This document shows, piece by piece, positions 1-23,401 of a stretch of 64,000 nucleotides of DNA. The position numbers and the translations under genes are program-made. The notes beneath the pieces were generated by a model that had not been told where the DNA came from, did no database searches, and saw nothing but the letters and a program-made list of their open reading frames with translations. Positions within the stretch are counted from its first letter, which is position 1; each line of letters begins with the position of its first letter. The DNA comes from Candidatus Babeliales bacterium (GTDB taxonomy: Bacteria > Babelota > Babeliae > Babelales > UASB340): positions 12,265-76,264 of the forward strand of contig JAGLWI010000003.1 in assembly GCA_023133515.1 (NCBI GenBank). The letters are read 5' to 3'.

Positions 1-867
1 GCAGGAATTTTTTTGGGAATAGCTTCTTTAATAAGACCAGTTGGCCATTTTATTATTGTTATCTCAGTAATTATTTTTCTTTTTTCTAATCTGGATTTTT
101 TAAAAAAGTTAATTGGAAGTTCGTTTTTAATATTTGGCTGGTCGTTAATTATATTTTGGTGGATTTTGAGAAACTTTTTGTTTACTGGTGAAATTTTTTT
201 TCATTCAATGAGTGGGGATCATTTTTTAAATTTTTTATCTGTTGATGTTGTTTGTCAACAAACACTTATACCTTTTAATAAGACTAGAAATAAATTATTA
301 GGTGAATCTAGAGAATTAATTTTAAATGAAGAAAAAAAAATAGGAAAAAAATTAAATAAAATTCAAAGATGTAAAATTTCGGAAAAGATAGCTTTTAAAT
401 ATTTAAAAAAATTTCCTTTTGGTACTATTAAAAGATGTTTAATTAATATTTTAAAAACTCTTTTTTGTTTTTATTCTAGGCCATTATTGTATAAACGATT
501 ACCTCATTTAGTTACTTATAATTATTTTAATTCATTTTCTTCTAGTTGGTATAAAGTTAAAAGTTTTTTAGTTTCTATTTTTTCTGACAAATTTATGGTG
601 TTTTTAGTTTATTATGAGTTGTTGTGGATGATGATTATATTTTTAGGTTTTTTTGGGGGAATTATTCTTTCTTTTTTGAAAATATATTTGTTATGTGAAT
701 TATTAAAAATTTTACCATTTATTTTTTTACTTTTGTTTTTAACCATAGGTGTTGGATTTGCAAGATTACGTTTTCCAATAGAACCTTTTTTAATAATTTT
801 TTCTTCTTATTTTTGGATTTATATATTTAAAAAAAGAGTTAGTAACTTTATATGTTCTATAAAATAA
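1..867 (+). CDS. GT-C-fold (ArnT/PMT_2-like) integral membrane glycosyltransferase paralog, 5'-truncated by window edge
   Basis: Frame 1 is open from base 1 ([16 protein letters not shown]...). It aligns with the C-terminal half of the downstream paralogs, including [20 protein letters not shown] and GFARLRFPIEPF. Confidence 0.8.
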   Translation, partial: AGIFLGIASLIRPVGHFIIVISVIIFLFSNLDFLKKLIGSSFLIFGWSLIIFWWILRNFLFTGEIFFHSMSGDHFLNFLSVDVVCQQTLIPFNKTRNKLLGESRELILNEEKKIGKKLNKIQRCKISEKIAFKYLKKFPFGTIKRCLINILKTLFCFYSRPLLYKRLPHLVTYNYFNSFSSSWYKVKSFLVSIFSDKFMVFLVYYELLWMMIIFLGFFGGIILSFLKIYLLCELLKILPFIFLLLFLTIGVGFARLRFPIEPFLIIFSSYFWIYIFKKRVSNFICSIK

Positions 868-2270
868 AGAATAATATTTATTTTTGTATTTTTTTATTTT
901 TGATTTCTATGTTAATTAGAGGATTATTTTTTTTAGAATTTTTAGTTAAAGACGAAAATTTTTTTGTTTGTACTGATTCAGCAGAATATCAAGGAATAGC
1001 CTTAAATATTTTTCATGGAAATGGGATTAAAAATCATAATGATGTTTTAAATTTTCGTCGACTTCCTGGATATCCTATTTTTTTATCGTTGTGTTATAAG
1101 ATTTTTGATATAAAAATTAAAAAAGCATTATGGTTACAGATAATTTTATCTTTGTTTATTCCTATTTTAGTTTTTTGTCTTTCTTTAACATTTTTTCCGT
1201 TAAATATTTTTTTAGCAAAAATAGTATCTGTTTGGGCTACATTTCATATAGGTTTTTTATTACATTCTGGAATGATTCAATCAGATTCTATCTTCGTTAT
1301 ATTTTTTTTATTATTTTTAATTTTATTTTTTTCAAGTTTTAATTTATTTTTTTGTAAAGAAGGATTTTTATTTTTATCTAAAAGAAGAATTTTTTGTGCT
1401 GGAATTTTTCTTGGGATATCATCTTTGATACGTCCTGTTGGACATTATTGCATGATAATATCTTTATTGTTATTTCTCTTTTCTAATTTTGACTTTTTTC
1501 AAAAATTAAAAGGTACAATTATATTGTTTTCAGGTTGGTTTGTAATTGTATTTTGGTGGATTTTGAGAAATTTTTTATTGACTGGATTTTTATTTTTTCA
1601 CACTCTACCAGGAATTCATTTTTTGATTTATTCTGCGGCATATATTGATATGGAGGTTAATAAATGCAGTTATAGTGATTCAAAAAGAAAATTAATAAAA
1701 AAATGGAATTGTGAAATTTTAAAAAAACAAGATAAGTATGGAAGGAAATTAACAGATATTGAAAGTTGTTATTTGGCTGAAAATATTTCTTTTGATTATA
1801 TAAAAAAAAACATATCAATTTTTTTGAAACATAGTTTTTTGCATATGTTTAAAACTTGTGTTTGGCCATATTCTTTAACATTGCTTTTTTGGGATTCTGG
1901 AAGGGATTCTAGTTATTATAAAATAATGTCTTTTTTTGATAGAGTTAAAAGATTTTTATTTCCTACCACTTCTAGTTGGAAAGTATTATTTATTATTTAT
2001 TTTGAACTTTTGTTTTTATTACTTTTAAATTTTGGGTTTATAGGTTTTGTTATTGTTTCTTTTTTTAATAAAGAATTTTTTTGTGTTTTATCAAAAGTTT
2101 TTCCATTTATGTTTTTATTTATTTTTGTTACTTTGGCATATGGAATTGCTAGATTAAGGCTTTCGATAGAGCCATTCCAGGCAATTTTAGCTTTTAAATT
2201 TTGGGTTTTAATATTAAAAAGATTTTTTAAAAGTGAGATTAGTAATGAAAAATACATCAAACTTAAATAA
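852..2270 (+). CDS. GT-C-fold (ArnT/PMT_2-like, GT39/GT83-type) membrane glycosyltransferase, array paralog 1
   Basis: 472 aa and multi-TM. The first loop has D-S-x-x-Y ([11 protein letters not shown]), followed by [40 protein letters not shown] and [11 protein letters not shown]. It overlaps the upstream paralog by 16 nt. Confidence 0.75.
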
Positions 2271-3849
2271 AAAAATTGCAATTATAATTGGTGCTGGTCC
2301 TGCAGGTTTAACTGCGGCATATGAACTTTTAGAGAAAACTGATATTAAACCAATTATTTATGAGCAAGATAGTCAAGTTGGTGGTTTAAGTAGAACCGTT
2401 AATTATAAAGGGAATAGAATAGATATTGGAGGACATAGATTTTTTTCAAAATCAGATAAGATAATTTCTTGGTGGAAAAAAATTTTACCTTTACAAACAG
2501 CCCAATCAAAAGATGATATTATTTTGTCACGAAATATTAAATATGATGGAAAATATCAAAATATAAGTGATCCTGAAAAAGTTGATAATGTAATGCTTAT
2601 AAGAAATAGATTGTCGCGTATATTCTTTTTAAGAAATTTTTTTGATTATCCAATTTCTTTAAGCTTTAACACTTTAAAAAAATTAGGATTTATAAGAATT
2701 CTAAAAATAGGTTTTAGTTATTTTAAAATTATATTTTTCCCTTTTAAAAATGAAAAATCTTTAGAAGATTTTTTTATAAATAGATTTGGAAAAGAACTTT
2801 ATAATACTTTTTTTAAAGATTATACAAAAAAAGTTTGGGGTGTTGAGTGTAGTAAGATTGATGCTTCTTGGGGAGCTCAAAGAATCAAAGGTTTATCTAT
2901 AAGTAAAGCAATTTGTCATTTTTTAAAATCTATTTTTAGTAAAAATAAATCCATTTCTCAAAAAAATATAGAGACAACTCTTATTGGACGTTTTATGTAC
3001 CCTAAATTTGGTCCAGGGCATATGTGGGAACAGGTTGCAAAGTTGATTGAACAAAGAGGAGGAAAAGTTTATTTGGATCACAAAATTGTGGGATTAAAAA
3101 CTGATAAAGATCAAATAACAAATATTTTTGTGGAAAACAAAATTTCTAAAAAGATTTTTAATCGAAATGCAGATTTTTTTTTCTCATCAATGCCTGTAAA
3201 AGATTTAATTGAAGGATGGCAATCTGGTGTTGATAAAGATGTAATGCAGGTTGCACAAGGTCTTGTATACAGGGATTTTATTACTGTAGGGTTACTTTTA
3301 AAAGATCTCCTGGTAAAAAATCAGACAAAAACTAAGACGGTTAATAATATTATTCCAGACAATTGGATTTATATTCAGGAGAGAGATGTTAAAATTGGAA
3401 GATTACAAATATTTAATAATTGGAGCCCTTACATGGTCAAAAACCTAAATAATATTTGGATAGGGCTTGAATATTTTTGTACTCAAGGTGATGAACTTTG
3501 GGAAAAATCAGATAAAGAATTTAAAAGTTTTGCTATAGATGAACTTTGCAAAATAAATTTTATAAAAAAAGAAGATGTACTTGATAGTGTCATTATTCGT
3601 ATGCCTAAAACTTATCCAGCATATTTTGGGACTTATGATAGATTTAATGTTATTAAAAATTTTCTTTTTAAATATGAAAATTTATTCTTGATTGGTAGAA
3701 ACGGAATGCATAGATATAACAATATGGATCATTCAATGCTAACAGCAATGGAGGCTGTAGAAAATATTGTAAATAATATTAAAACAAAAAATAACATTTG
3801 GTCTATTAATGCTCAAGAAGAATATCATGAGGAAAAGGCGAGAAGATAA
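2245..3849 (+). CDS. FAD-dependent oxidoreductase (Rossmann GxGxxG; amine-oxidase/UDP-galactopyranose-mutase-like fold)
   Basis: N-terminus is [21 protein letters not shown]...VGGLSRT. The C-terminus is [25 protein letters not shown]. It is a paralog of 10827..12293. The ATG at 2245 is preferred over the GTG at 2233. Confidence 0.75.
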
Positions 3850-3851
3850 AA

Positions 3852-5258
3852 ATGCATGATATTTTTTTAGTTGTAAGGAAAGAAAAGAGATTTTTATTAT
3901 TTCTTTTAATTGTATCATTTTTAATAAGAGCAATATTTTTTGGATTATTTTTAAGTCACGATAAAAATTACTTTACCCTTGACTCAAATACTTATCATAG
4001 GGTTGCCATTAAAATATTTGAAGGAAAAGGGATAATTGATGTGGATGATAAACCACATTTTTATAGAGTTCCAGGGTATTCTATTTTTTTTGCTACAATA
4101 TATAAATTATTTGAAATAAATGAAGTATTAGCTTTATGGATACAGATTTTTTTTACTTCTTTTCTTCCTTTTTTAATATTTTTTTTATCTATTATTTTAT
4201 TTTCTACTAAAATATTGGTTGCAAAGGCTTCATCTATATTTAGCTCTTTTCATATTGGATATGTATTGTTTTCTGGATTGATGATGACAGAAGGTTTTTT
4301 TTCTTTGTTTTTTATTATTTTTCTTATATTTTTTTTATATGATTTTAATTTTTTCTTTTCAAAAAGTATTCAATCAAAGAGTATTTCTTATAAAAATATG
4401 TTTTTAGGAGGTTTGTTTTTAGGTATTGCTTCTATGTTTAGGCCAGTTGGTCATTGTCTTATTATTTTATCTATAATCTTGTTATTATTTGAAAAAAAAC
4501 ATTTTATGGTGAAAATAAAAAAATCATTTGTTTTATTTGTTTCATGGAGTTTAATTGTTTTTTGGTGGATTTTAAGAAATTATTTTTTAACTGGTTATAT
4601 TTTTTTTCATACCTTGCCAGGAATTCATTTTTTAAAACATATTTCTATTCCAATTGATATGCAGATTAACAAACATAATTTTCATGAGAGCCATGCTAAA
4701 ATTTGGAATGAATGGAATGATTTAATTAAAAAAAAAGAAAAAATAGAAAAACGTAATTTAATTGATATTGAAAAATGTATTATTGGTGAAAGATTGGCTT
4801 TTAGTTATATGTTAAAATATCCTATTTTAACCATTAAAAGAGCTTTTTGTAATTTTTTTAAAACTAATTTTTTTATTTATTCTTATAAGATTTTAGAGAT
4901 TAATGGCTATAAAAAACATTGGGAGATAGATGATAAGAAATCATTTTTTAATAATATCCTAGATAGATATCTTAATATACCTATTAAAAATAATTTATTA
5001 AGAATAATTATTTGGTTAGAAATATTTTTCATTAATTTTATTTTTATTGGTTTTATCTTTTTTATTATAAAGTCTTTTTTTGATATTAATTTATTATATG
5101 TGACTTTAAAAATTTTACCGTTTATAGGATTTATGATATTTATTACTTTTGCTTGTGGTTTTGCAAGATTAAGATTACCAATAGAGCCTTTTTTATTTAT
5201 ATCGTCATTTTATTTTTGGATTAATTTATTTAAAAGATCTAAAAAAGTTGAGCAATGA
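3852..5258 (+). CDS. GT-C-fold membrane glycosyltransferase, array paralog 2
   Basis: 468 aa. Motifs are [60 protein letters not shown] and FARLRLPIEPF. Confidence 0.75.
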   Translation: MHDIFLVVRKEKRFLLFLLIVSFLIRAIFFGLFLSHDKNYFTLDSNTYHRVAIKIFEGKGIIDVDDKPHFYRVPGYSIFFATIYKLFEINEVLALWIQIFFTSFLPFLIFFLSIILFSTKILVAKASSIFSSFHIGYVLFSGLMMTEGFFSLFFIIFLIFFLYDFNFFFSKSIQSKSISYKNMFLGGLFLGIASMFRPVGHCLIILSIILLLFEKKHFMVKIKKSFVLFVSWSLIVFWWILRNYFLTGYIFFHTLPGIHFLKHISIPIDMQINKHNFHESHAKIWNEWNDLIKKKEKIEKRNLIDIEKCIIGERLAFSYMLKYPILTIKRAFCNFFKTNFFIYSYKILEINGYKKHWEIDDKKSFFNNILDRYLNIPIKNNLLRIIIWLEIFFINFIFIGFIFFIIKSFFDINLLYVTLKILPFIGFMIFITFACGFARLRLPIEPFLFISSFYFWINLFKRSKKVEQ

Positions 5259-6655
5259 CTAATAATAAAACTCTTTTATTGTTTATAAAGAAAGATAAGA
5301 AATTTTTATTGTTTCTTTTTATCGTATCATTTTTAGTAAGAGTGATATTTTTTGGATTATTTTTAAGCCACGATAAAAATTATTTTAGATCTGATTCTTT
5401 AAGATATAGTGAAACTGCAAATCAGATATTTAATGGAAATGGTATAAAACGTGTTGATGGATCTTATAATTTTTGGCGTGTTCCTGGATATTCTATTTTT
5501 TTAGCTTTTTGTTATAAGTTATTTGACGGTGACCATATAAAATCTCTTTTGGTGCAAATTTTTTTATCTTCATTTATTCCATTACTTATATTTTTATTGT
5601 CACTTGTATTATTTAAGTTTGATATTCTTCTTGCAAAAATCTCGTCAATTTTCAGCGCTTTTTTATTAGGGTATATTTTATATTCTGGATTGATGATGAC
5701 GGAAAGCTTGTTTTGTATATTTTTTTACATTTTCATCATATTATTTTTACTAAATTTTAATTTTTTCTTTTGTAAAACTTCATTTACTAGAAATTCTTTT
5801 ATTAATATTTTTTTGGCGGGAATATTTTTAGGAATATCTTCTTTATTGCGACCAATGGGGCATTATTTTATGCCTTTGTTTATATTAATGTTGCTTTTAA
5901 ACAAAAATTATTTCATTCAAAATTTGAAAAGATCGGGTTTATTCTTTTTTGGATGGTTAATAATAGTTTTTTGGTGGCTTTTAAGAAATTATCTTTTGAC
6001 TGGATTTATTTTTTTTCACACTTTGCCAGGACATCATCTTTTGTATTATGCAGCAGTTCCTATTGATGTGGCCATCAAAAAAATTTCTCCAATACAAAGT
6101 TCTGATAGAATACTAATAAATGAAAGGAAAGAACTTTATAGGTGTAAAGAAGAAAAAATAGGACGCAAATTAATTGATATAGAAAAATGTTGTATTGATG
6201 AAAAATTAGCTTTTAATTATATAAAACGGGGCCCTTTTTTATTTTTTAAAAATAGTATTTATAATATGATTAAAACATGTTTATCACTTCATTCATCTAC
6301 GATTTTGGCAATATTGGGGCATTCTCCGCCCTCTTACTATAAAATTGGAAGAACATTTTGGGATTTGATTAAAAGATTTTTATTTCCTCCTGTAAAAAAC
6401 ATTTTTATAAGAGGAATAATTTTTTCAGAAATATTTTTATTATTTTTTATTTTATTAGGATTTCTTTTTTGTTTAATTAAATCTTTTTTTGATATAAATC
6501 TTTTTTGTATTATTTTTAAATTTTTACCAGTGATTCTTTTTATGATTATTCTTACTTTTGCCACTGGATTTGCAAGATTAAGATTACCGATAGAGCCTTT
6601 TTTAATAATTCCAGCATTTTATTTTTGGTTAAGTTTTTTTAAAAGGATTTCATGA
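5255..6655 (+). CDS. GT-C-fold membrane glycosyltransferase, array paralog 3
   Basis: 466 aa with an ATGA start/stop overlap with paralog 2. Motifs are RSDSLRYSETA, WRVPGYSIFL, SGLMMTES, SLLRPMGH, FWWLLRNYLLTG and FARLRLPIEPF. Confidence 0.75.
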   Translation: MTNNKTLLLFIKKDKKFLLFLFIVSFLVRVIFFGLFLSHDKNYFRSDSLRYSETANQIFNGNGIKRVDGSYNFWRVPGYSIFLAFCYKLFDGDHIKSLLVQIFLSSFIPLLIFLLSLVLFKFDILLAKISSIFSAFLLGYILYSGLMMTESLFCIFFYIFIILFLLNFNFFFCKTSFTRNSFINIFLAGIFLGISSLLRPMGHYFMPLFILMLLLNKNYFIQNLKRSGLFFFGWLIIVFWWLLRNYLLTGFIFFHTLPGHHLLYYAAVPIDVAIKKISPIQSSDRILINERKELYRCKEEKIGRKLIDIEKCCIDEKLAFNYIKRGPFLFFKNSIYNMIKTCLSLHSSTILAILGHSPPSYYKIGRTFWDLIKRFLFPPVKNIFIRGIIFSEIFLLFFILLGFLFCLIKSFFDINLFCIIFKFLPVILFMIILTFATGFARLRLPIEPFLIIPAFYFWLSFFKRIS

Positions 6656-8079
6656 ATATAAATCTTATTGCAATTTTGAAAAAAGAAAAAAGATTTTTAT
6701 TATTTTTATTTTTGTTTTCTTTTTTCATAAGGGCAATTATTTTTGGATTTATCTTAAGTAAGGATAGAAAATATTTTACATTTGACTCGTCATTTCATAA
6801 TGAAGTTGGAATGGAATTTTCTAAAGGACGTGGTTTGGTTCGTGTGGATGGTGCTTATGCTTTTTGGAAAGTTCCAGGTTATGCAATTTTTTTAGGATTG
6901 GTTTATAGTTTATTTGGTCAAGATGAATTAAAGGCAATTTTTTTTCAAATTTTTTTATCATCTTTTTTACCTATTTTAATATTTTTTTTGTCTTTAGTTT
7001 TGTTTTCTAATGCTATTATTCTTGCAAAAATTACATCGATTTATGGGGTTTTTCATTTAGGTTATGTTTTATTTTCTGGATTGATGATGACAGAAAGTAT
7101 TTTTTGTTTGTTTTTTTTATTATTTTTAATATTTTTTTTGTCACAGTTTAATTTTTTCTTTTGTAAAGAAGCAATAAAAGATTTTTCTTTAAGAAAAAGT
7201 TTTTGTGGAGGTGTTTTTTTAGGTGCTGCATCTTTGATTCGTCCTGTTGGTCATTATTTAATTCTGTTATTAATATTGATGATGTTTTTTGACAATGTTC
7301 CTTTTATTATAAAATTAAAAAAATTGGGATTGTTGGTTTTTGGGTGGGGATTAATAATTTTTTGGTTACTTTTAAGAAACTATTTTTTAACTGGTTATAT
7401 TTTTTTTAATACAATGCCAGGAAATCATTTTTTATATTATGTTGCAGTTCCTATAGATATGTATATGAATAATAATTCAGCTAAAGAAAGTTCTGAAAAA
7501 TTACTTGAAAAAGAATTGAAAGAATTGATTAAAAAAGAAAAAAAAGATAAGTGTAGAAAATTACAAGAAATAGAAGAATCTATTATTGCTCAAAAACTTG
7601 CATATAATTATATTTTAAAAAAGCCTTTTTTATTTGTTAAGAATGCCATTTATAATATGATTAAGACTTGTATATCTTTTCATTCTTCCCATATTCTTGC
7701 TATTTGTGGACATTATCCTGAATGGTGCTATGAAAAAGGTGTAACATTTAACAAGAGGATTAAAAAATATTTGTTTCCACCTATAAAAAATAATTTTTTA
7801 AAATTTATTATTTTCCTAGAAATTATTTTTTCCTTTTTTATTTTAGTAGGATTTGCTGGTGGGATAATTAAGTCATTTTTTAAGTTTGAATTTTTATGTT
7901 CAGTTTTAAAATTTTTGCCTATTATGTGTTTCATGATATTTCTTACATTTGCTAGTGGTATTTCAAGATTAAGATTGCCAATAGAACCTTTTTTTATAAT
8001 AATTGCATTTAATTTTTGGTTGAATATTTTAAAAAGGAGAAAAGGATTATTTAGTGTGGACAAATGCAATGCAAAATAA
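6652..8079 (+). CDS. GT-C-fold membrane glycosyltransferase, array paralog 4
   Basis: 475 aa with an ATGA overlap. Motifs are [46 protein letters not shown] and ISRLRLPIEPF. Confidence 0.75.
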   Translation: MNINLIAILKKEKRFLLFLFLFSFFIRAIIFGFILSKDRKYFTFDSSFHNEVGMEFSKGRGLVRVDGAYAFWKVPGYAIFLGLVYSLFGQDELKAIFFQIFLSSFLPILIFFLSLVLFSNAIILAKITSIYGVFHLGYVLFSGLMMTESIFCLFFLLFLIFFLSQFNFFFCKEAIKDFSLRKSFCGGVFLGAASLIRPVGHYLILLLILMMFFDNVPFIIKLKKLGLLVFGWGLIIFWLLLRNYFLTGYIFFNTMPGNHFLYYVAVPIDMYMNNNSAKESSEKLLEKELKELIKKEKKDKCRKLQEIEESIIAQKLAYNYILKKPFLFVKNAIYNMIKTCISFHSSHILAICGHYPEWCYEKGVTFNKRIKKYLFPPIKNNFLKFIIFLEIIFSFFILVGFAGGIIKSFFKFEFLCSVLKFLPIMCFMIFLTFASGISRLRLPIEPFFIIIAFNFWLNILKRRKGLFSVDKCNAK

Positions 8080-9442
8080 AAAATTTCTTATTTTTTTATT
8101 TTCATTTTCATTATGTATACATTTTTTATTTGTTTATTTTTTTTTTAAAAAAGAATCTGATCATTTTGTTCCACGTGATTCTGCTCAATATCATGATGTT
8201 GCATTTCAGATAGCAAATGGAATGGGAATATCAAATATGGATGGAAGTCCAAGTTTTTATCGTGTACCAGGTTATTCTTTATTTTTAGCGTTTTGTTATA
8301 AAATTTTTGATTTTGATTTAAAAAAGACTATTTGGCTTCAAGTTTTTTTATCGTCTTTAATTCCGATTTTTGTCTTTCTTTTGTCATTAGCTTTTTTTCC
8401 AAATCAGTTACTTTTGGCAAAAATAGCTTCTATTTTTATGGTTTTTAATTTAGGTATGTTGGTACATTGTGCACTTTTAATGTCTGAAGTTTTTTTTATG
8501 ATTTTTTCAATAATTTTTTCAATTTTATTTTTTTCAAGTTTCAATTTATTTATTTGTAAATCTAAAGATTATTTTTTTTCTTATAAAAAGATTTTTTTTT
8601 CAGGAATTTTTTTAGGAGTGTCTTCTTTAATAAGGCCTGTAGGACATTTTATTTTGATAATTACAATTTTTCTTTTAATTTTTTCAGATTTTATATTTTT
8701 GAAAAAATTAAAAAGTTTAGGAGTACTTTTTTTGGGTTGGGTTTTGATTGTATTTTGGTGGTTATTTAGAAATTATTTACTTACTGGAATGATATTTTTT
8801 CATGGTATGACCGGTTATCATTTTTTAAATTATTTTGCATCAGAGATTGATTGTATGGCTAAAAAAACTATTTATTCAAAATCAAAAGATAAATTACTGG
8901 AAGAATGGCAAAATTTAATTTTGGAAAAAGAAAAAGAAAAAGGAAATAAAATTGGACAAATTGAACGATGTTCATTGGCTGGAGATCTTGCATTAAAAAT
9001 AATAAAAGAGAATATTTTTTTGAGCATAAAGCATTCTGGCCTTAATATTTTTAAGACTATTTTTGGATTACATTCTGTTTTCTTTATATCAAGATTTTCT
9101 TTATCTTTTCCAAATTATACGAGTAAGACAACAATGTTTGATAAAATCAAAAATTTTATTTTCCCAAAAATTTCAAACAAATTTATAATATTTTTAATAT
9201 ATTTGGAGATTATATTATTAGTATTTATTTTATTAGGATTTTTTTGTTATGGGATTGTTTCTATTTTTTGTTTTGAAAAATTATGTTCTTTTTTAAAGGT
9301 TTTGCCTTTAATTACATTATTATTATTTTTGACTTTTGGTTCAGGAATCGCAAGATTAAGGATTCCGGTTGAACCATTTTTGATAATTTTTTCATTTAAT
9401 TTTTGGATTAATTTTTTTTCAAAATATAAAAAAATTTTATAA
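8069..9442 (+). CDS. GT-C-fold membrane glycosyltransferase, array paralog 5
   Basis: Motifs are [41 protein letters not shown] and IARLRIPVEPF. The ATG at 8069 (MQNKKFLIFLF) matches the other paralog N-termini better than the GTG at 8054. Confidence 0.72.
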   Translation: MQNKKFLIFLFSFSLCIHFLFVYFFFKKESDHFVPRDSAQYHDVAFQIANGMGISNMDGSPSFYRVPGYSLFLAFCYKIFDFDLKKTIWLQVFLSSLIPIFVFLLSLAFFPNQLLLAKIASIFMVFNLGMLVHCALLMSEVFFMIFSIIFSILFFSSFNLFICKSKDYFFSYKKIFFSGIFLGVSSLIRPVGHFILIITIFLLIFSDFIFLKKLKSLGVLFLGWVLIVFWWLFRNYLLTGMIFFHGMTGYHFLNYFASEIDCMAKKTIYSKSKDKLLEEWQNLILEKEKEKGNKIGQIERCSLAGDLALKIIKENIFLSIKHSGLNIFKTIFGLHSVFFISRFSLSFPNYTSKTTMFDKIKNFIFPKISNKFIIFLIYLEIILLVFILLGFFCYGIVSIFCFEKLCSFLKVLPLITLLLFLTFGSGIARLRIPVEPFLIIFSFNFWINFFSKYKKIL

Positions 9443-10842
9443 TGACACTTTCTTTGAACAATAAGAAAAAATTTTTAATTTTTTTATTTTGTTTGTCTTT
9501 TTTGATAAGAGCAATAATTTTTGGTTTCTTTTTAAGTAAAAATAAAAATTATTGGAATCGTGATTCAAAAGCTTATAATAATGTTGCTATTCAAATATCT
9601 AAAGGAAAAGGAATTGTTAATTTGGATAGTTCTTATCATTTTCATAGAGTTCCTGCGTATTCTATGTTTTTAGCTTTATGTTACAAATGTTTTGGATATG
9701 ATATAAAAAAAGCATTATGGATTCAGATTTTTTTTGCTTCTTTTATTCCGATATTAATTTTTTATTTGTCTCTTTTTTTATTTAATAACAATATATTTTT
9801 AGCAAAGATTTGTTCGATTTTTACATCATTTCACATAGGATATGTTTTATTCTCTGGCCTTGTAATGACTGAGGTTTTTTTTATTTTGTTTTTTTCTATT
9901 TTTTTAATTTTGTTCTTGAGAAATTTTAATTTTTTTTTCTGTCAAAAGAAATATATTAAAAATTCTTATAAATTTTTTTTAATAAGCGGAATCTTTTTAG
10001 GGCTAGCTTCGCTTATGCGTCCTGTGGGACATTATATTGTTTTTATATCATTAGGTTTTTTACTTTTATCAGATTTTAATTTTATAAAAAAAATAAAAAG
10101 CATCATTTTGCTTTTTATTGGATGGTTAATGATAGTTTTTTGGTGGCTTTTAAGAAATTATCTTTTAACTGGTTTTATTTTTTTTCATACGTTATCTGGA
10201 ATTCATTTTTTAAAGCATTCCGCAGGAAGATTAGTAATGAAATCTCATGATTGTTCTTATATGCAGGCTTTAGATCGGTTAAATAATGAAATAAATATAT
10301 TCCAAGGAAAAAAAGAAAAAGATATTGGAAGAAAATTGAATGAGATAGAATATTGTCAATTAGCAGAAAAAGTTTCTTTTAAATATTTAAAAAAAGATTA
10401 TGTTTTAACAACAAAACATTTTTTGACCAATATTTTTAAAACATGTTTTTCTTTGTATTCTGCAATGCTTTTACATATAAACTCTGGAGGTAAATTACCT
10501 GATTATAATAAAAACAGAGGCTGGAAAAAAGTTTTAAAACGTTTTTTGTTTCCAGATACTTTGAGCCGTTGGTTAAAATTTGTAATATATCTCGAGATAT
10601 TTTTTCATTTATTTATTTGGATTGGTTTTTTAGGTTTTTCAACGTATTCTTTTTTTTGTAAAGATTATTTATGTGTGTTTTTAAAAACATTTCCATTTAT
10701 TTTTTTATTTATTTTTATTTCTTTAGCATGTGGTTTTGCAAGATTAAGGTTGCCTATTGAGTGCTTTTTGATAATCTTATCATTTAAGTTTTGGTTGGAT
10801 TTATTTTGGAGAAGAAAGAGTGGTTTATGGATAAAAGTTTAA
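9442..10842 (+). CDS. GT-C-fold membrane glycosyltransferase, array paralog 6
   Basis: 466 aa. Its start overlaps the upstream stop by 1 nt (TAATG). Motifs are NRDSKAYNNVA, HRVPAYSMFL, SGLVMTEV, SLMRPVGH, FWWLLRNYLLTG and FARLRLPIECF. Confidence 0.75.
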   Translation: MTLSLNNKKKFLIFLFCLSFLIRAIIFGFFLSKNKNYWNRDSKAYNNVAIQISKGKGIVNLDSSYHFHRVPAYSMFLALCYKCFGYDIKKALWIQIFFASFIPILIFYLSLFLFNNNIFLAKICSIFTSFHIGYVLFSGLVMTEVFFILFFSIFLILFLRNFNFFFCQKKYIKNSYKFFLISGIFLGLASLMRPVGHYIVFISLGFLLLSDFNFIKKIKSIILLFIGWLMIVFWWLLRNYLLTGFIFFHTLSGIHFLKHSAGRLVMKSHDCSYMQALDRLNNEINIFQGKKEKDIGRKLNEIEYCQLAEKVSFKYLKKDYVLTTKHFLTNIFKTCFSLYSAMLLHINSGGKLPDYNKNRGWKKVLKRFLFPDTLSRWLKFVIYLEIFFHLFIWIGFLGFSTYSFFCKDYLCVFLKTFPFIFLFIFISLACGFARLRLPIECFLIILSFKFWLDLFWRRKSGLWIKV

Positions 10843-12293
10843 AGAAGGAAGCTGTGGTTATAGGAGCTGGACCGGCTGGTCTTACTGCAGCATTAGAACT
10901 TGTAAAATCTGATAAATTTGAAGTTAAAATTTTAGAAAAAGATTTTGTTGTAGGTGGAATTTCTAAAACTACGGAATATAACGGTTGTAAATTTGATATA
11001 GGACCACATCATTTTATAACTGATTCAAAAAAAGTAGAAGATTGGTGGTTTGACTTGATGAAACCTGAGCAGGAAAATGGAAATCTTTTTATAAATTTAT
11101 GTAGATTTACAAGAATTTATTATAAAAAACATTTTTTTAATTATCCTTTACAACCTTTAAACGTTCTTAAAGGTCTTAGTTTTTTTGAATGTCTGTATTG
11201 TGTTTTTAGTTATATAAAAATTTGTTTATTTCCTATTAAAAAGGTAAAAACTTTTCAGGATTGGGTTACTAATAAGTTTGGATACAGGCTTTTTTTTATT
11301 TTTTTTAAAACTTATACAGAAAAAGTTTGGGGAATATCTTGTAATAAGATATCTGCTGATTGGGCTGCTCAAAGAATAAAAGGATTTTCTCTTTCAAAAG
11401 CTATATTTTATGCTTTTTTTGGAAGATTTTTTAAAAAAAATACTCTAAGAACTTTGAGTGATAAATTTTATTATCCATTGTTTGGAGCAGGAACATTGTG
11501 GAACAGGGTGGCTTTTAATATAGAGTCTAGTAAATTAGGAAAAATATTTTTAAATAAAAATGTTGTTGGAATTACACATAATGATTTTAAAATTACATCT
11601 GTTTTTTCTTGTAATGCTAAAGATTCAATAAGTGGTGCTAAAAAATTAATAGAACATAGAGCAGATTATTTTTTTTCTACAATGCCTATTAAAGATTTAA
11701 TTTTGTCAATGGATCCGTTACCTAAAGAAAATATTATTAAAGCAGCAAAAAAATTACGATATAGAGGCTTAATTACTGTTAATTTTATTATAAATAAAAA
11801 AAATATTTGTTTTGATCATTGGCTTTATATTCATGATAAAAGTGTAAAGATGGGACGTATTGGAAACATGAATAATTTTTCTTTAAAAATGGTTGATAAT
11901 CCAAATCATACAGCTCTTAGTTTAGAGTATTTTACTTTTGTTGATTCGTCATTTTGGAAAAAAACAGATGATGCGTTAATAAGATTGGGAAAAAGAGAAA
12001 TTGAAAAAATTGGAATAGTAAAAAAGAAAGATGTTATTAGTGGAATGATTTTAAGGTTGCAAAAAGCATATCCTATTTATGATAAAAATTATAAAAAGGA
12101 TTTGAAAATTATTTTTGATTATTTAAATAAGTTTTCAAATTTACAACTAATGGGACGAAATGGATTGCATAAGTATAACAATATGGATATTGCCATGCTT
12201 TCTGCGTTTAAAGCTGTAGATATTGTTTTGCAATCTGAAAAAGATGAAAAATTAAATAAAGAAACAGAAAAGATTGTGCAGATGAGAGTTTGA
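10827..12293 (+). CDS. FAD-dependent oxidoreductase, paralog of 2245..3849
   Basis: Motifs are [39 protein letters not shown]...SADWAAQRIKG and GRNGLHKYNNMDIAMLSAFKAV. It is colinear with the first copy. The ATG at 10827 is preferred over the TTG at 10791. Confidence 0.75.
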   Translation: MDKSLKKEAVVIGAGPAGLTAALELVKSDKFEVKILEKDFVVGGISKTTEYNGCKFDIGPHHFITDSKKVEDWWFDLMKPEQENGNLFINLCRFTRIYYKKHFFNYPLQPLNVLKGLSFFECLYCVFSYIKICLFPIKKVKTFQDWVTNKFGYRLFFIFFKTYTEKVWGISCNKISADWAAQRIKGFSLSKAIFYAFFGRFFKKNTLRTLSDKFYYPLFGAGTLWNRVAFNIESSKLGKIFLNKNVVGITHNDFKITSVFSCNAKDSISGAKKLIEHRADYFFSTMPIKDLILSMDPLPKENIIKAAKKLRYRGLITVNFIINKKNICFDHWLYIHDKSVKMGRIGNMNNFSLKMVDNPNHTALSLEYFTFVDSSFWKKTDDALIRLGKREIEKIGIVKKKDVISGMILRLQKAYPIYDKNYKKDLKIIFDYLNKFSNLQLMGRNGLHKYNNMDIAMLSAFKAVDIVLQSEKDEKLNKETEKIVQMRV

Positions 12294-12300
12294 TATTGAT

Positions 12301-13725
12301 ATGAAAGATAATTTTATTTTATTGGTTTTTTCACTACTTTTTATATTTTTTTCTTTTGTTTTATATTTTAGTATTTCATCTATTCCTCCTTATCAAGATA
12401 TAGATTCTAAGGCATATATTTATAATGCAAAAAGAATTTATGATAACAATCTTTTTTCATCAGTAGCTAGCAAAAAAGATGATCCTTATTATGCTTTAGG
12501 ATATGCATTTTTTATTGGCTTGATATACAAATTATTTGGAATAAATAATAATTTTGTTGTTTTTATACAAATTTTATTAGCTTTATTAACAGGTTTTTTA
12601 GTTTTTAGGGCAACCAAATTTTTATTTAATAAAACAATTGCATTAATATCGTTTATATTTTTTTCTTTTAATATTGGTTTTTTGGTTTTTTCTCAATTTA
12701 TTTTGACAGAAATATTATTGACTTTTTTATTAGCATTGTTTTTTGAGCGATTTGCGTATTTTTTAAAAAAAGATAGTATTTCAAGTTTGATTCAATCTGG
12801 GTTGATATTGGGGATTTCTGTAGCAGTAAAACCTGCTGCAATATATTTTATTTTTCCTTTGTTTTTTTTGATTTTATTTATGAACCGAAGCTTTTCGGGC
12901 TTTGTAAACAAAGCCATTTTGTTGAAGTCGGAGGAGAAGTTGTCTAGCGAAGATTTATTTTTAATAAAAAATAAATTGTTTTATAAAATTAAATTAATTT
13001 TTTTTCTTTCTGTTTCTTTTTATCTTCCTATTATTGGTTATATGTTTTTTAATAAAATTAACTTTGATAATTTTAGTGTTGCTCCTTTGGCAAATGAGAA
13101 TCTTTATCTTTATCTTTTCCCAAAAGTTATTGCTTATAAAAATAATACAGATTGGATTATAGAGAAAAGAAAAATTGGTTCACTTTTAACCGGTAGTAAG
13201 TTGAATGAAAAAAGTTGGTCAAAAATAAAAGAAAAATTTTATGAATATTTTAAAAAAGACCCAATTATTTTTTTACAGATTTGGTTAAAGAATGTTTTTA
13301 AGACGTGTGTTGGTCTTTTTACAACAAATCTTAAAGTTTTGATAGAAAGAGATGTAAAAGGTGGAGATATTTCTTTTTTCAAAATGGAAGGAAATTTTTT
13401 TAAAAGAATTTTTGATTATATTACATGTGGTACAAAAAATCCTCTAATAAAAATAGTAGGTGTTTTTGAGGCTATCTGGTCAGTATTACGTTATATTTTA
13501 TGTTTGATTGCTTTATTTTTTTTAGTTTTTAAGAAAAAGTGGTTAACTTTTTTCTTTTTCTTTTTTTATTTATTTTATTTTTCAATGATTACAGGTCACG
13601 ATGGTTGTGCAAGATTTAGAATGATGTTTGAGCCTGTGTTGCTAGTTTTGGCATCATTTGGTTTGTGGGTTATAGTAAGAGCTTATATGAAAACTCAGAT
13701 AATTTTACAACGGCGTTCATCCTGA
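12301..13725 (+). CDS. Divergent GT-C-fold (PMT_2-like) membrane glycosyltransferase
   Basis: 474 aa and multi-TM. It has DIDSKAYIYNAKRI in the first loop and a C-terminal CARFRMMFEPV that echoes ARLRLPIEPF. The last codons and the TGA stop lie inside palindromic repeat copy 1. Confidence 0.65.
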   Translation: MKDNFILLVFSLLFIFFSFVLYFSISSIPPYQDIDSKAYIYNAKRIYDNNLFSSVASKKDDPYYALGYAFFIGLIYKLFGINNNFVVFIQILLALLTGFLVFRATKFLFNKTIALISFIFFSFNIGFLVFSQFILTEILLTFLLALFFERFAYFLKKDSISSLIQSGLILGISVAVKPAAIYFIFPLFFLILFMNRSFSGFVNKAILLKSEEKLSSEDLFLIKNKLFYKIKLIFFLSVSFYLPIIGYMFFNKINFDNFSVAPLANENLYLYLFPKVIAYKNNTDWIIEKRKIGSLLTGSKLNEKSWSKIKEKFYEYFKKDPIIFLQIWLKNVFKTCVGLFTTNLKVLIERDVKGGDISFFKMEGNFFKRIFDYITCGTKNPLIKIVGVFEAIWSVLRYILCLIALFFLVFKKKWLTFFFFFFYLFYFSMITGHDGCARFRMMFEPVLLVLASFGLWVIVRAYMKTQIILQRRSS

Positions 13726-13860: not shown

Positions 13861-14928
13861 ATGTTGGATAGATATTTTATGATTCTTTGTGGTGGTGGGG
13901 GTGAAAGACTTTGGCCACTGAGTCGGAAAAAAAAACCAAAACAGTTTATTAATTTTTTAAATAATTCTTCTCTTTTAGAACAAACTATAAATCGAATAAA
14001 GCCACTTATTCAGTATAAAAAAAATTTAGGAATTATTATTAATAATAATCAATCTGATTTGATTTTAGAATCGGTATTAGAAAAAATAGGTTTTGTATTA
14101 AAAGAACCAGCTTTAAGAAATACTGCGCCAGCGGTTTTATATAGTTGTTTCCATTTAAAAAGTTTGAGTAAAGATGCAGTTGTTGTTTTCCTTCCAGCAG
14201 ATTCTTTTGTAACTGAAAATGAAAAATATTGTCATTATTTGGAAAAAGCAATTAAATATGCTTCTGAAAATGAGAAAATTGTAACTTTGGGTGTTATGCC
14301 AACTTATCCTGCAACTGGATATGGATATATTCAAGCCGGTTTAAAGGATGGAGAAAAAATAATTTGTGGGAATGTTTATGATACTTTTAAATTTCATGAA
14401 AAACCAGATTTGAAACTTGCTGAAGATTATATTCAAAAAGAAGATATGTTTTGGAATATTGCAGTTTTTATATCAAAGGTTTCTGTTTTTTTAAATGAAT
14501 TTGAAAAAAATGCTCCTTTTCTTTTTAATTCAATGAAAAATTTTTTAAATAACGATATTAAATATGAAGATATTAAAAATATTTCAATAGATTATGCAGT
14601 TATGGAAAAGAGTAAAAATGTTGCTGTTTTGCCATGTGATTTTGAATGGAGTGATGTAGGAAATTTGGAAGTTTTTTTGCGATTACAATCTAGATTATCA
14701 GAAAATAAAAATGGAATAAAAATTATAAATGTTGACTCTGAAAATAATTTAGTACATATCACAAAAAAAGAATTAAAAAAAGATAAGGCTGTTATATTTT
14801 TGGGAGTTGAGGATATTTGTTTAGTAGAAGATGATAACGTGATTTTGGTGGCAAAGAGAGGAGATGTAGAAAAAGTTAAAAAAGTTTTAAAAAAATTACG
14901 TGAAGAATCTTTAGATCAATTTCTTTAA
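13861..14928 (+). CDS. manC: Mannose-1-phosphate guanylyltransferase (NTP-transferase domain only)
   Basis: The N-terminal ILCGGGGERLWPLSRKKKPKQF matches the ManC/CpsB signature. It is 355 aa and lies immediately upstream of gmd. Confidence 0.7.
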   Translation: MLDRYFMILCGGGGERLWPLSRKKKPKQFINFLNNSSLLEQTINRIKPLIQYKKNLGIIINNNQSDLILESVLEKIGFVLKEPALRNTAPAVLYSCFHLKSLSKDAVVVFLPADSFVTENEKYCHYLEKAIKYASENEKIVTLGVMPTYPATGYGYIQAGLKDGEKIICGNVYDTFKFHEKPDLKLAEDYIQKEDMFWNIAVFISKVSVFLNEFEKNAPFLFNSMKNFLNNDIKYEDIKNISIDYAVMEKSKNVAVLPCDFEWSDVGNLEVFLRLQSRLSENKNGIKIINVDSENNLVHITKKELKKDKAVIFLGVEDICLVEDDNVILVAKRGDVEKVKKVLKKLREESLDQFL

Positions 14929-14956: not shown

Positions 14957-16048
14957 ATGAAAAAAGCTTTGATTACGGGAATAACTGGTCAGGATGGGTC
15001 CTATTTGGCAGAGTTTTTATTAAAAAAAGGATATCAAGTTCATGGTATAAAACGTCGTTCTTCTAGTTTTAATACTTCTCGAATTGATCATATTTATCAG
15101 GATCGATATAGAATAAATAATAGAAACTTTGTTTTACATTATGGTGATTTAACTGATGCTACAAATTTAATAAGAATTATTCAGGATACTCAGCCAGATG
15201 AAATTTATAATTTAGCTGCGCAAAGTCATGTTCATGTTTCTTTTGAAACTCCAGAATACACAGCAAATTCAGATGCACTTGGAACATTAAGATTGCTTGA
15301 GGCTATCAGGATTTTAAAGCTAACCAAAAAAACCAAATTTTATCAGGCATCAACGAGTGAACTTTATGGAAAAGTTCAGCAGATTCCTCAAAATGAAAGT
15401 ACTCAATTTTATCCACGTTCACCTTATGCGGCAGCAAAACTTTATGCTTATTGGATAACCATTAATTATCGTGAGGCATATAATATTTTTGCTTGTAACG
15501 GTATTTTATTTAATCATGAGTCTGAAAGGCGTGGAGAGACTTTTGTGACAAGAAAAATTACAATAGCAGTTTCGAAAATAAAATATGGATTACAAGAAAA
15601 ACTTTTTTTAGGAAATTTGGATTCAAAAAGAGATTGGGGTTATGCAAAAGAATATGTTGAAGCAATGTGGCTTATGTTGCAACATGAAAAACCTCAGGAT
15701 TATGTTATTGCAACTGGTCAAACTCATACTGTAAGAGAGTTTGTTGAATTGGCATTTAGATTTGTTGGAAAAGAAATAATTTGGCACGGTACAGGTGTTA
15801 ATGAAAAAGGAATTGATAAAAAAACTGAAAAAGTTTTAGTTGAGATTGATCCAATTTATTTTAGACCAACAGAAGTTAATTTGTTGATTGGTGACGCAAG
15901 AAAAGTTAAAAATGATCTTGGTTGGGCTGCAAAAACATCATTTAATGATCTAGTAAAATTGATGGTTGATTATGATTTGAAACAGATTGAAAAAGATTTG
16001 AATTTAAAAATTGTAAAAAAGGTGAAGGGTGAATTTTACAGGATTTAA
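14957..16048 (+). CDS. gmd: GDP-mannose 4,6-dehydratase
   Basis: Motifs are [56 protein letters not shown] and [17 protein letters not shown]. Confidence 0.92.
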
Positions 16049-17993
16049 AATTTTTAAAAATAAATTTTTTTTAAGTTTAATTTTGTTTCTATCCATTTTT
16101 TTAATTTTTGCTTTTAGTATAAAACAATTATGGTTTAAATTAGATGATATTGGCACAATAGTTGATGGACTTATTAAAAATTGGAATGATTTTTTAAAAG
16201 TTTTTTCTACTCAATCACGTGATTTTACAGCTCCTATTAATTATAAATTTTCAAAACCAAATTTTATTTCTGCTATTTATAGGCCCTTAATAAATATTCC
16301 ATATACAATAATTTATTATTTTTTTGGTCTTGATGCATATATTTTTTATTTGTTAAATGTATTTTTTCATGCAATTAATTCCGTTTTGTTATTTTATATT
16401 TTTTCATTTTTTATGCCTGTGGGATTATCTTTTTTAGGTGGATTTCTGTTTGCATTCTATAGGGAAATGTCTTGGCTTACTTGGATTGCTATTTTAAATA
16501 ATGTACTTTCTACATTTTTTTTATTTATAACTACAATACTTTTTTTAACTTTTTTTTTAAGATCTAAAAAAGAAACTTTATGGTGTTATGATTGGAGGTA
16601 TTATCTTTCAGGGTTTACGTTATTGCTATCTTTTTTATCAAGAGAAACTCCTGTGTTTTTTTCTTTTTTTGTATTTTGTTCAATATTTTTTTTATGTAGC
16701 TATAAATATGAAAATTTTTATGAAAAAATAAAATATTCTTTTTCAAAATCATGGATTTTTTTTCTTTCAAATTTTGTTTATGTTTTAATTAGAATTTGGG
16801 CTTTTGGTTTTGAAACTTTGGATCGGACTTTTAATAATTTTTTTATTAGGTTTCCTTTTTTAAAAAATATTTTCTTAGAAAAAGCAAATGTAAAATTAGT
16901 TAATGAATTGTCTAATAATATTGTAAGTAATACTGTTGAAAATGTAAGTAAAGTGTTAAGTAGTGCAAATACAGTTAATTTAAAAAAAACTTTTTTCACA
17001 GATTTTTTTTCAGAAAAGATTATAAAGATAGAAAATTCTTTTTTTGCATGGATTAGAAGTTTGTTTTATGTAGATATTCAATCTTTTCAGGATAAAGTTT
17101 TATATTTTTTGATATTTTTATTTTTGTTGTTTTTTTTAATTTTTGCCTATAGAAAACATGGAAAAGTTTTATTAGTTTTGTTTTTAGGTTTTATATTTTT
17201 TGCTTGGCCAGGATTTTTAGCTTATCCAAATACTCGGTATATATCGTCTGTTTATCCTATTTTAATATTTACTGTTTTGTTTGGGCTTTATTTATTTTGT
17301 AGGAATTTATCAATAAAACTGATTTTTAGAAAATCTATTTCTTTTTTAATTGTTTTGTTTTTATTTGTAGTTCTTTTTGCGGGTATTAAAAAAAATCACA
17401 AGGGTTTAAATATTACTGCGGTTTCTTCCATTAAACGAAAAGAAAAATATGAAAAGTTTTTTAGAGAAAATTCATTTGATAATGGTAAGAATTTTATAGT
17501 TATAAGTTCTCCTTTTACTTCTGATATTCATAGTGTTTTTCAGTATTTTTTAAATAACTATAGTATTAAATTATCGTATGTTCTTTTTTCTACATTGGCA
17601 AATAAAGGAAGCATGGGTTGTAGGGGTGATTATAAAGTTAAAGGAGTTGAGAGTAAAATAGTTTCAGTTAAAATGGATGGTAAAAAAGGAATTAGATTAA
17701 TTTCATTGAATAAGCAACATTGTGCTTGGTGGATGAATTTCTCTGATCATCCAATCAAATGGTCAAAAAAAGAAAAAGCATATATTTGGACAGATAAAAA
17801 ATATATGGTTGATAGATGGTATGATTTTTCTATGGGAAAATTTATTATAAATGAGATGATTGGCGATAAATATGTTACTGATATAATTTTTATTTTTGAT
17901 AACATTTGGGTAGATGAAAATACGGTGTTTGTATTTTGGGATACAATGGAAGGTAAATATAAAGTTTTAAATATTGATAAGGAGATTGAATGA
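16029..17993 (+). CDS. Large polytopic membrane protein, possible GT-C-fold glycosyltransferase with a C-terminal soluble domain
   Basis: 654 aa with about 12 hydrophobic segments. An acidic [10 protein letters not shown] follows TM1. The last ~200 aa are hydrophilic. The GTG start overlaps gmd by 20 nt. Confidence 0.5.
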
Positions 17994-18199
17994 AGATTAC
18001 AAAAAGAGTGTTTTTTTTAACAATGATATCATTTTTTGTATCTACAAATTTTGTTTATTCTTATATAGATCCAGGTATGGGTAGTATGTTAATTCAACTA
18101 CTTATTGCTAGTTTTGTTGGAGCTTTATATTGTGTAAAAGTTTTTTGGAAACAGATAAAAATATTTACGGTTTCTGTTTTTAGAAAAAAAGGTAGTTAA
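17990..18199 (+). CDS. Small membrane protein (69 aa) with YIDPGMGS motif
   Basis: ATGA overlap with the upstream gene and TAATG overlap with the downstream gene suggest translational coupling. It has two hydrophobic segments. Confidence 0.5.
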   Translation: MKITKRVFFLTMISFFVSTNFVYSYIDPGMGSMLIQLLIASFVGALYCVKVFWKQIKIFTVSVFRKKGS

Positions 18200-23343: not shown

Positions 23344-23401
23344 GTAATTAAGATAGTACAACTTAGGTTGATAAAAATAAATGCGAAATCAAAATGTTAA
23401 G

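Follow-up and report, generated by a model that had tools for sequence, protein, structure and literature searches.

A nine-copy tandem array of predicted GT-C-fold membrane proteins with embedded mutase-family flavoenzymes in a glycan locus of Candidatus Dependentiae

The 64,000-nucleotide stretch of DNA analysed here (hereafter the window; positions 12,265 to 76,264 of contig JAGLWI010000003.1, assembly GCA_023133515.1, Candidatus Babeliales bacterium) comes from an organism that is probably host-dependent, with a small genome, and a member of the candidate phylum Dependentiae. The window opens with a tandem array of paralogous membrane protein genes (the core family), and the complete array, which begins upstream of the window, comprises nine core copies and one divergent, PMT_2-type glycosyltransferase of the GT-C fold (D8). 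We consider it likely that the nine core copies are co-expressed GT-C transferases that use polyprenyl-phosphate-sugar donors, each adding a different residue or linkage to one surface glycan; D8 would be the tenth such enzyme, and it is probably followed by an eleventh, of a third type. The assignment of the core family to the GT-C fold is supported by a structure model and its database matches, by homology to the PMT_2-positive D8, by PF13231 annotations on some homologues and by an invariant aspartate. Two flavoenzyme genes embedded in the array and an operon context conserved among relatives are the most informative clues to function.

Results

Organization of the array

The window is very AT-rich (G+C 22-30%), with coding almost wholly on the + strand. 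Positions 1-10842 are occupied by seven homologous core open reading frames (ORFs) of 462-475 aa, all on the + strand. The core paralogs can be aligned over their full length at 38-55% pairwise identity, and every core copy scores 498-702 bits with a family hidden Markov model (HMM), which excludes a chance likeness; a DNA periodicity of ~1,390 bp, with 60-75% identity between copies, was recovered independently by repeat finding. The motifs by which the array had first been recognised, in a reading made from the letters without database searches (the sequence-only reading), were all found in the paralog alignment (DSxxY, (Y/W)RVPGYSIFL, SLxRPxGH, FWWxLRN, FFHTLPGxHF and ARLRLPIEPF). The overlaps of 1-16 nt that it described were likewise recovered, the core-core junctions in the window measuring 16, 4, 4, 11 and 1 nt. 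Neighbouring genes either overlap by 1-16 nt or lie a few nt apart; the array therefore forms one translationally coupled operon. The genes had been described as seven in a row; they do lie on the same strand and are homologous end to end, but a flavoenzyme gene (2245-3849) separates copies 2 and 3 of the window.

It had also been noted that the array runs off the window edge. The public contig L038 (GCA_030631185.1) encodes these exact proteins, and extension upstream on it completes the cut copy (8583-10016, 477 aa, start 566 nt before the window, HMM 527 bits) and adds two more, placing the start of the array 3,419 bp upstream of window position 1. The full order is four core paralogs, a flavoenzyme, five core paralogs, a second flavoenzyme and D8, and all nine core ORFs are intact. 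Recent gene conversion or amplification was ruled out, given that the DNA identity between copies is just 60-75%, with no near-identical stretches. Phase variation was ruled out as well: homopolymer tracts of 9-10 nt occur window-wide, and no simple sequence repeat arrays were found.

Evidence for a GT-C fold

An AlphaFold (AF2) model of copy 5255-6655, built from an alignment of 110 sequences, has a predicted local distance difference test score (pLDDT) of 95.8 and a predicted template-modelling score (pTM) of 0.94. When it was compared with the PDB using Foldseek, its 27 best matches were all GT-C structures, with ArnT first (E 5e-4); they comprise ArnT, AglB/STT3, Pmt1/2/4, ALG3/9, PIGU and AftA/B. 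A structural comparison with ArnT and Pmt had been suggested by the sequence-only reading, and both are thus among the matches. The Foldseek probability is 1.0 for ranks 1-15, at least 0.89 down to rank 27 and at most 0.1 from rank 28 onwards; the exceptions below rank 27 are again GT-C structures (AftA 0.77, AftB 0.93, EmbA-EmbB 0.35), and the other low ranks are unrelated transporters.

Homology points the same way. The divergent further member of the array that had been proposed at 12301 is indeed related to the core copies, at 21-28% identity and with 105 bits from the family HMM, and D8 itself exceeds the Pfam cut-offs for PMT_2 (50.6 vs 26.1 bits) and PMT (28.6 vs 22.7 bits). Moreover, precomputed PF13231 annotations are found on ~14 of the 120 homologues listed from other genomes, and several homologues are labelled 'Ara4N transferase-like' (Ara4N, 4-amino-4-deoxy-L-arabinose) by the Joint Genome Institute (JGI).

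Across the 110 sequences, D47, which lies ~10 residues past the first transmembrane (TM) helix (residues 15-37), is invariant and Y51 nearly so; Y79, R441 and R443 are also invariant, and R75, E150, R199, R244, N245, H261 and E447 nearly invariant. The GT-C_A enzymes (ArnT, PMT, PglB/STT3) are characterised by a conserved acidic residue where the first external loop (EL1) begins. An N-in topology with 10 helices agrees with the helix pattern and the distribution of charges, and from it we infer that D47, the other conserved charged residues, EL1 and an insert spanning residues 248-382 are periplasmic. In the model, the sole soluble part of the protein is an all-helical insert (residues ~257-376) and the C-terminal end consists of three TM helices; neither a PMT-type MIR domain nor an ArnT-type C-terminal periplasmic domain is present in it, and neither was matched as a Pfam domain. 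On the strength of the model, the Foldseek matches, the D8 homology, the PF13231-bearing homologues and the invariant Asp, the earlier call of a GT-C (ArnT/PMT-like) family holds.

Variable insert and diversification of the paralogs

Synonymous sites are saturated at 38-55% amino-acid identity, and regional amino-acid divergence among the paralogs was therefore used as the measure of variability instead of dN/dS. In the nine paralogs, residues 257-382, the soluble helical insert between TM7 and TM8, show 32.9% mean pairwise identity vs 48.5% elsewhere, and the least conserved 126-residue window begins at residue 264. The hydrophilic segment thus proves to be the most divergent part of the protein, as the sequence-only reading had said, the effect being moderate.

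Three of the paralogs (the first copy of the array and those at 8069 and 9442) are closer to orthologues in other genomes (54-56%) than to the paralogs beside them: copy 8069-9442 is 54% identical to L003_1602 and 55% to L009_3329, and copy 9442-10842 is 56% identical to L003_4331 and L002_2635. Hence, these subfamilies are old. Other copies are lineage-specific duplicates, namely a pair (the copy at the window edge and the one just upstream of it) and a trio (3852, 5255 and 6652). According to a best-hit analysis and a rough neighbour-joining tree, the nine copies combine some four or five old subfamilies with a recent expansion. The proposal that the paralogs have diversified in acceptor specificity fits the divergent, predicted periplasmic insert and the old, separately conserved subfamilies, and we retain it as a suggestion. 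Elsewhere in the family, an 891-aa database protein (P0128) carries two tandem copies within one ORF, and at locus L033 (11483-12926) one copy is apparently split in two ORFs; both observations indicate that such arrays continue to undergo fusion and decay.

A cassette conserved in Dependentiae

Homologues of the core family come nearly all from metagenome-assembled genomes of Candidatus Dependentiae (TM6) / Babeliales. A profile search of 1.84 billion representatives returned a tight clade of 253 clusters at E<=1e-30, then 3,370 clusters at E<=1e-10 and 10,053 at E<=1e-3, a threshold at which it blends into the wider GT-C/PMT_2 pool. The genome scan for relatives used a 13-sequence family alignment, and synteny was drawn from 37 fetched related loci. 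One to six core copies followed by a mutase (the flavoenzyme described below) were found in ~25 Dependentiae loci, and in 17 of these the mutase is followed in turn by D8 and ManC. The order of the cassette is core GT-C copies, mutase, PMT_2-type GT-C (after 0-2 kb) and ManC, often continued by GDP-mannose 4,6-dehydratase (GMD) and a protein of the type encoded at 16029. In 18 related loci, a single copy of D8 lies after the mutase, and ManC follows it in 17; in L022, ManC follows the mutase and D8 was undetected. Two mutases are also present in the longer arrays L003, L004, L009 and L030. The number of core copies varies from 1 to 9 across related genomes, the nine found here being the highest count seen, which bears out the copy-number variation for which the sequence-only reading had advised looking. 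In some related genomes, such as that of L001, a 632-aa asparagine-synthetase-like amidotransferase (L001 14355-16253) is encoded between the mutase and the PMT_2-type GT-C, a place where the window lacks it.

Flavoenzymes embedded in the array

The sequence-only reading was right about the paralog array but missed the two flavoenzymes within it and the conserved operon context. Both flavoenzymes (2245-3849 and 10827-12293) are assigned to PRK07208 sub-models named 'hypothetical protein' (838 and 506 bits), and the best solved relatives of both are UDP-galactopyranose mutases (UGMs; E 2e-13 for 10827-12293), in particular the long eukaryote-type UGM of A. fumigatus (3UTE). The protein encoded at 2245-3849 aligns with the latter in four blocks along its whole length and shares with it the flavin adenine dinucleotide (FAD) motif GxGxxG, the GGH loop and the motifs W..(E/Q)R, (Y/G)R, YP and GR.G..RY..N.DHS; matching motifs are also legible in the translation of 10827-12293. 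The aligned motifs presumably hold the AfUGM substrate-binding residues R182, R327, Y419, Y453 and N457. Overall similarity to UGM is low (~49-54 bits), and the UGM equivalog TIGR00031 is not reached (35-42 bits vs a cut-off of 304). Given the retained FAD, His-loop and Arg/Tyr/Asn substrate-binding motifs, the flavoenzymes are best described as putative UGM-family nucleotide-sugar pyranose-furanose mutases.

Other membrane proteins of the locus

Two further proteins had been proposed to be GT-C-like, at 16029 and 63293. The first of them (654 aa) has seven homologues, all from Dependentiae, and follows GMD in 7 related loci; an invariant DD lies past its TM1 and an invariant C..WWM in its C-terminal, beta-rich soluble domain. 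Its model has a pLDDT of only 63.6, and the 14 best structural matches of that model are all GT-C, with PglB and STT3 first. In profile-profile comparison (hhalign), its family gives a weak, in-register match to the core family (46%, E 2e-4); the single sequence gives no match to the core family, nor does the family profile match any PDB sequence. The structural matches lend the proposal tentative support; the protein is probably a third kind of GT-C and could be oligosaccharyltransferase-like.

The second protein is truncated by the window (63293-64000). At full length (L040 10973-12913) it is a polytopic protein of 646 aa that could be placed in no family, without detectable similarity to the core family in a single-sequence hhalign comparison and not detectably related to the protein at 16029. 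Its gene lies directly before a fusion of GT2 and GtrA (GtrA_DPMS_TM), just past the window end (L040 12949-13977), and the two look like another pair of synthase/flippase and large membrane protein. The product of the gene at 18199 is soluble and shows no detectable similarity to the core family (hhalign).

The surrounding glycan locus

The entire window, together with its flanks (at least 6 kb on the upstream and 10 kb on the downstream side), constitutes a glycan-synthesis supercluster. Its sugar-nucleotide genes encode ManC, GMD, GDP-fucose synthase, a CDP-glucose branch, UDP-glucose dehydrogenase and several short-chain dehydrogenase/reductase enzymes; in addition, it encodes six GT4s, a PglK/MsbA-type ATP-binding cassette (ABC) exporter, a KpsS-like protein, a sulfatase-fold membrane protein and formyl-, acetyl- and methyl-transferases. 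The GT4s, the ABC exporter and the sugar-nucleotide pathways could supply an acceptor glycan. A candidate donor synthase, the GT2 at 23381-24406, matches the PgfS (214 bits) and ArnC-type (155 bits) models, both over their full length and both under the equivalog cut-offs. The coordinates of the features are collected in Table 1.

Several neighbouring genes deserve mention in their own right. The window holds PseB and PseC equivalogs, two NeuB-type synthases and two CMP-sugar cytidylyltransferases, and two nonulosonic-acid branches seem to be encoded. A fusion of 5-formyl-tetrahydrofolate (THF) cyclo-ligase and FolD (methylene-THF dehydrogenase/cyclohydrolase; 47017-48438, - strand) lies near a formyltransferase-like gene (45594-46304), which suggests that formyl donors are made here specifically for an N-formylated sugar. 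Ahead of the array, L038 683-5676 encodes a UDP-GlcNAc 2-epimerase, a UDP-sugar dehydrogenase and a 760-aa ADH_zinc_N/GFO_IDH_MocA fusion; hence, the glycan locus reaches past the window on both sides. In mid-locus, a gene of opposite orientation (30990-32237, - strand) codes for a 415-aa WD40 beta-propeller protein; eukaryote-like repeat proteins such as WD40 have been reported for Dependentiae.

Table 1. Features of the array and of the adjoining locus, in window coordinates (GT-C denotes the predicted fold).
Feature	Position	Strand	Basis or remark
Core GT-C paralog no. 3 of 9, 3' part	1..867 (ORF 13-867 in window)	+	gene cut by window edge
Core GT-C paralog no. 4, 472 aa	852..2270	+	HMM 654 bits; without Pfam match
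Putative UGM-family flavoenzyme 1, 534 aa	2245..3849	+	NCBIfam PRK07208.1-2, 838 bits; overlap with the 3' end of core paralog no. 4
Core GT-C paralog no. 5, 468 aa	3852..5258	+	belongs to lineage-specific trio
Core GT-C paralog no. 6, 466 aa	5255..6655	+	copy used for the structure model
Core GT-C paralog no. 7, 475 aa	6652..8079	+	family alignment, HMM
Core GT-C paralog no. 8, 457 aa from ATG at 8069	8069..9442 (ORF from 8054)	+	family alignment
Core GT-C paralog no. 9, 466 aa	9442..10842	+	in conserved 'last copy before the mutase' subfamily
Putative UGM-family flavoenzyme 2, 488 aa	10827..12293	+	NCBIfam PRK07208.1-4, 506 bits
Divergent PMT_2-type GT-C (D8), 474 aa	12301..13725	+	PMT_2 3e-13, PMT 1e-6
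Mannose-1-phosphate guanylyltransferase-like (ManC)	13861..14928	+	member of conserved cassette
GDP-mannose 4,6-dehydratase (GMD)	14957..16048	+	526 bits
654-aa membrane protein, probably GT-C fold with C-terminal beta-rich soluble domain	16029..17993	+	low-confidence model, profile comparison
GT2, PgfS/ArnC type, candidate polyprenyl-phosphate-sugar synthase	23381..24406	+	Glycos_transf_2; PgfS and ArnC-type models
Nonulosonic-acid gene set	38324-40457; 40454-41164 (-); 49723-50772; 59739-60623; 61633-62334		

Discussion

We herein describe an array that points to an unusually elaborate surface sugar coat, assembled on the outer face of the inner membrane. We postulate that each core enzyme would be an inner-membrane protein of ~10 helices with its active site facing the periplasm, where the invariant Asp past TM1 and the conserved Arg, Glu and His residues at the outer helix ends may form the catalytic centre, and that it would move a single sugar from a polyprenyl-phosphate carrier onto a glycan acceptor outside the cytoplasm. 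The donors would be built in the cytoplasm from nucleotide sugars by the PgfS/ArnC-like GT2 and subsequently flipped. Because ManC and the mutases are fixed in the cassette, the transferred sugars may be mannose (from ManC) and/or a furanose (from the two UGM-family mutases). The paralogs may jointly extend or branch one complex surface glycan, and the divergent, ~125-residue periplasmic insert, along with old subfamilies plus recent duplicates, suggests that each paralog most likely serves a different linkage or acceptor position.

Several observations weigh against this reading. The Pfam check that the sequence-only reading had advised failed, as none of the six full-length core copies in the window has a match at E<=0.1, PMT_2 and PMT included. 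No NCBIfam glycosyltransferase model was reached either, the only match among the core copies being a weak one of copy 9442-10842 to the Leptospira LA_3751/LA_3752 putative glycosyltransferase model; similarly, the 110-member family profile found no ArnT, PMT or other solved GT-C among the PDB sequences. The Foldseek support is modest (best E 5e-4, TM-scores 0.34-0.54), though GT-C and non-GT-C structures are cleanly separated. With respect to donor supply, the candidate GT2 lies 9.6 kb downstream of the array, a GT2 is found within 10 kb in only 4 Dependentiae loci, and no small dedicated flippase (GtrA, ArnE/F, SMR, MATE) was recognised among the window ORFs scanned. UGM products are normally consumed by cytoplasmic transferases, and we know of no polyprenyl-phosphate-hexofuranose donor; hence, the link between mutase and GT-C could be mere co-regulation. 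Finally, nothing in the locus points to a particular acceptor.

A bolder form of this reading would have the enzymes build a lineage-specific lipoglycan or surface polymer on the periplasmic face, a mannan or furanan loosely like mycobacterial lipomannan/lipoarabinomannan (LM/LAM), from donors that include polyprenyl-phosphate-hexofuranoses. The hexofuranose would pass from a UGM-type mutase to the GT2, be flipped and then be transferred by a GT-C, a route that to our knowledge has not been described so far, and we consider it improbable that this form holds as a whole. If it did, the number and type of the tandem GT-C paralogs would encode the structure of the polymer, which might replace lipopolysaccharide (LPS) at the host interface.

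Two alternatives differ from the favoured reading, sequential assembly of one surface glycan, mainly in the acceptor. Under the first, the paralogs would be PMT/PgfM-like enzymes of a multi-target protein O-glycosylation system, each for different secreted or outer-membrane proteins. PMTs use polyprenyl-P-mannose, and PgfS makes the donor for protein glycosylation by the Pgf system of Streptococcus mutans; accordingly, the match of D8 to both Pfam PMT and PMT_2, the similarity of the locus GT2 to PgfS above all and the fixed place of ManC in the cassette speak for it, and the variable periplasmic insert might serve to recognise proteins. Furthermore, most LPS genes have been reported to be missing from Babeliales (PMC4776705), so that the obvious lipid acceptor is not available. 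However, the core proteins carry no MIR or tetratricopeptide repeat (TPR)-type protein-binding domain, the insert being a small helical bundle; their best structural match is ArnT, not PMT; and the 64 kb are mostly of polysaccharide type (the six GT4s, the KpsS-like gene, the ABC exporter and the nonulosonic-acid pathways). We therefore give protein O-glycosylation a small chance, if the best one among the alternatives.

Next in order, and likewise unlikely, is a Gtr/ArnT-like decoration system, in which each paralog would attach one optional branch sugar to an already completed O-antigen, capsule or lipid A/core, so that copy number would set a serotype-like decoration repertoire and not a sequential assembly line. 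ArnT as top structural match, the JGI labels and the spread of one to nine copies between related genomes, as in gtr clusters, are consistent with it, and GT2/flippase/GT-C systems are a widespread route of post-polymerisation modification (PMC11127046). However, the copies all overlap and are co-directional, hence show no sign of independent or phase-variable control, and homopolymer tracts in the array are no longer than elsewhere in the window. Moreover, the nine transferases have a single candidate GT2 donor synthase between them, unlike gtr cassettes with one each, and no complete Arn pathway lies next to the array. The last alternative, that the core proteins act as polymerases or ligases of the Wzy/WaaL type, or as scaffold subunits without catalytic activity, could appeal to the direct Pfam and NCBIfam searches, which assign no glycosyltransferase, and to PIGU, a non-catalytic GT-C-like subunit, among the structural matches, but it is very improbable, as Foldseek returned 27 GT-C enzymes and no WaaL, Wzy or SEDS structure, the core copies have no Wzy_C or O-antigen-ligase Pfam match, all nine ORFs are intact, and the (near-)invariance of the acidic residue past TM1 and of the charged set argues for retained catalysis.

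The kind of enzyme (GT-C) and the logic of lipid-carrier-dependent extracytoplasmic glycosylation are already known. ArnT (GT83; C. metallidurans 5EZM/5F15) resembles the core proteins most closely in structure, with a multi-helix GT-C core and an Asp where the first periplasmic loop starts, and the PMT_2 family (PF13231) is reached by some core homologues and by D8, in a locus with an ArnC-like GT2. The core copies differ in falling below every Pfam and NCBIfam threshold, in being shorter (~466 aa) and amplified nine-fold, in having a helical insert between TM bundles instead of the C-terminal periplasmic domain of ArnT, and in standing beside no complete Ara4N pathway. Mycobacteria and corynebacteria likewise possess sets of GT-C paralogs, partly in tandem (EmbA/B/C, encoded by embCAB, AftA-D, MptA-C and PimE), each of which makes one mannan or furanan linkage outside the cytoplasm from polyprenyl-phosphate mannose or arabinofuranose. 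AftA, AftB and EmbA are among the structural matches of the core model, and the cassette, too, joins several GT-Cs to mannose activation and furanose-forming enzymes. The core copies, however, show no sequence-level relationship to these sets and have no C-terminal domains of carbohydrate-binding module (CBM) type; they belong to another phylum and envelope type, and UGM-type mutases would form the furanose at the level of the nucleotide sugar, in contrast to the phosphoribosyl pyrophosphate (PRPP)/DprE1-DprE2 route of mycobacteria. The lumenal ALG enzymes offer a further example of multiple GT-Cs that build one glycan. The three-component systems of extracytoplasmic glycosylation, including the GT136 pentofuranose system of Citrobacter (PMC11127046), follow the same logic of synthase GT2, flippase and GT-C. 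With Gtr (Shigella/Salmonella), GT136 and Pgf, the locus shares this logic and has a PgfS-like GT2, but those systems have one GT-C per synthase and flippase, whereas here there are nine to eleven GT-Cs for one or two synthases, with UGM-family mutases embedded in the array. The literature searched on Dependentiae glycosyltransferases, PRK07208, GT-C paralogs in tandem and galactofuranose in connection with GT-C yielded nothing specific. What appears to be undescribed is a Dependentiae-specific GT-C clade missed by current profile libraries, its tandem expansion to nine copies, and the conserved operon that links it with UGM-family mutases and a PMT_2-type GT-C.

Dependentiae are inferred to be parasites of protists. 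Their genomes of 1.0-1.5 Mb have been associated with a 'degenerated cell envelope', and Babeliales with little LPS machinery (PMC4776705). Against this picture, it is notable that a lineage with small genomes devotes more than 70 kb to glycan synthesis, including 10-11 GT-C enzymes. Such a density is comparable with or above that of mycobacteria, and, together with the size of the locus, it suggests that these bacteria invest heavily in a surface coat that is actively diversifying. Since neither Pfam nor NCBIfam detects the core family, it is annotated as 'hypothetical' in most genomes; recognition as GT-C, along with the cassette (core GT-Cs in varying number, UGM-type mutase, PMT_2 GT-C and ManC), provides an annotation handle for Dependentiae genomes. 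The obligate pairing of GT-Cs with a UGM-family mutase moreover poses the question of whether lipid-linked hexofuranose donors are real. Plausibly, the surface coat is central to host uptake or to intracellular survival.

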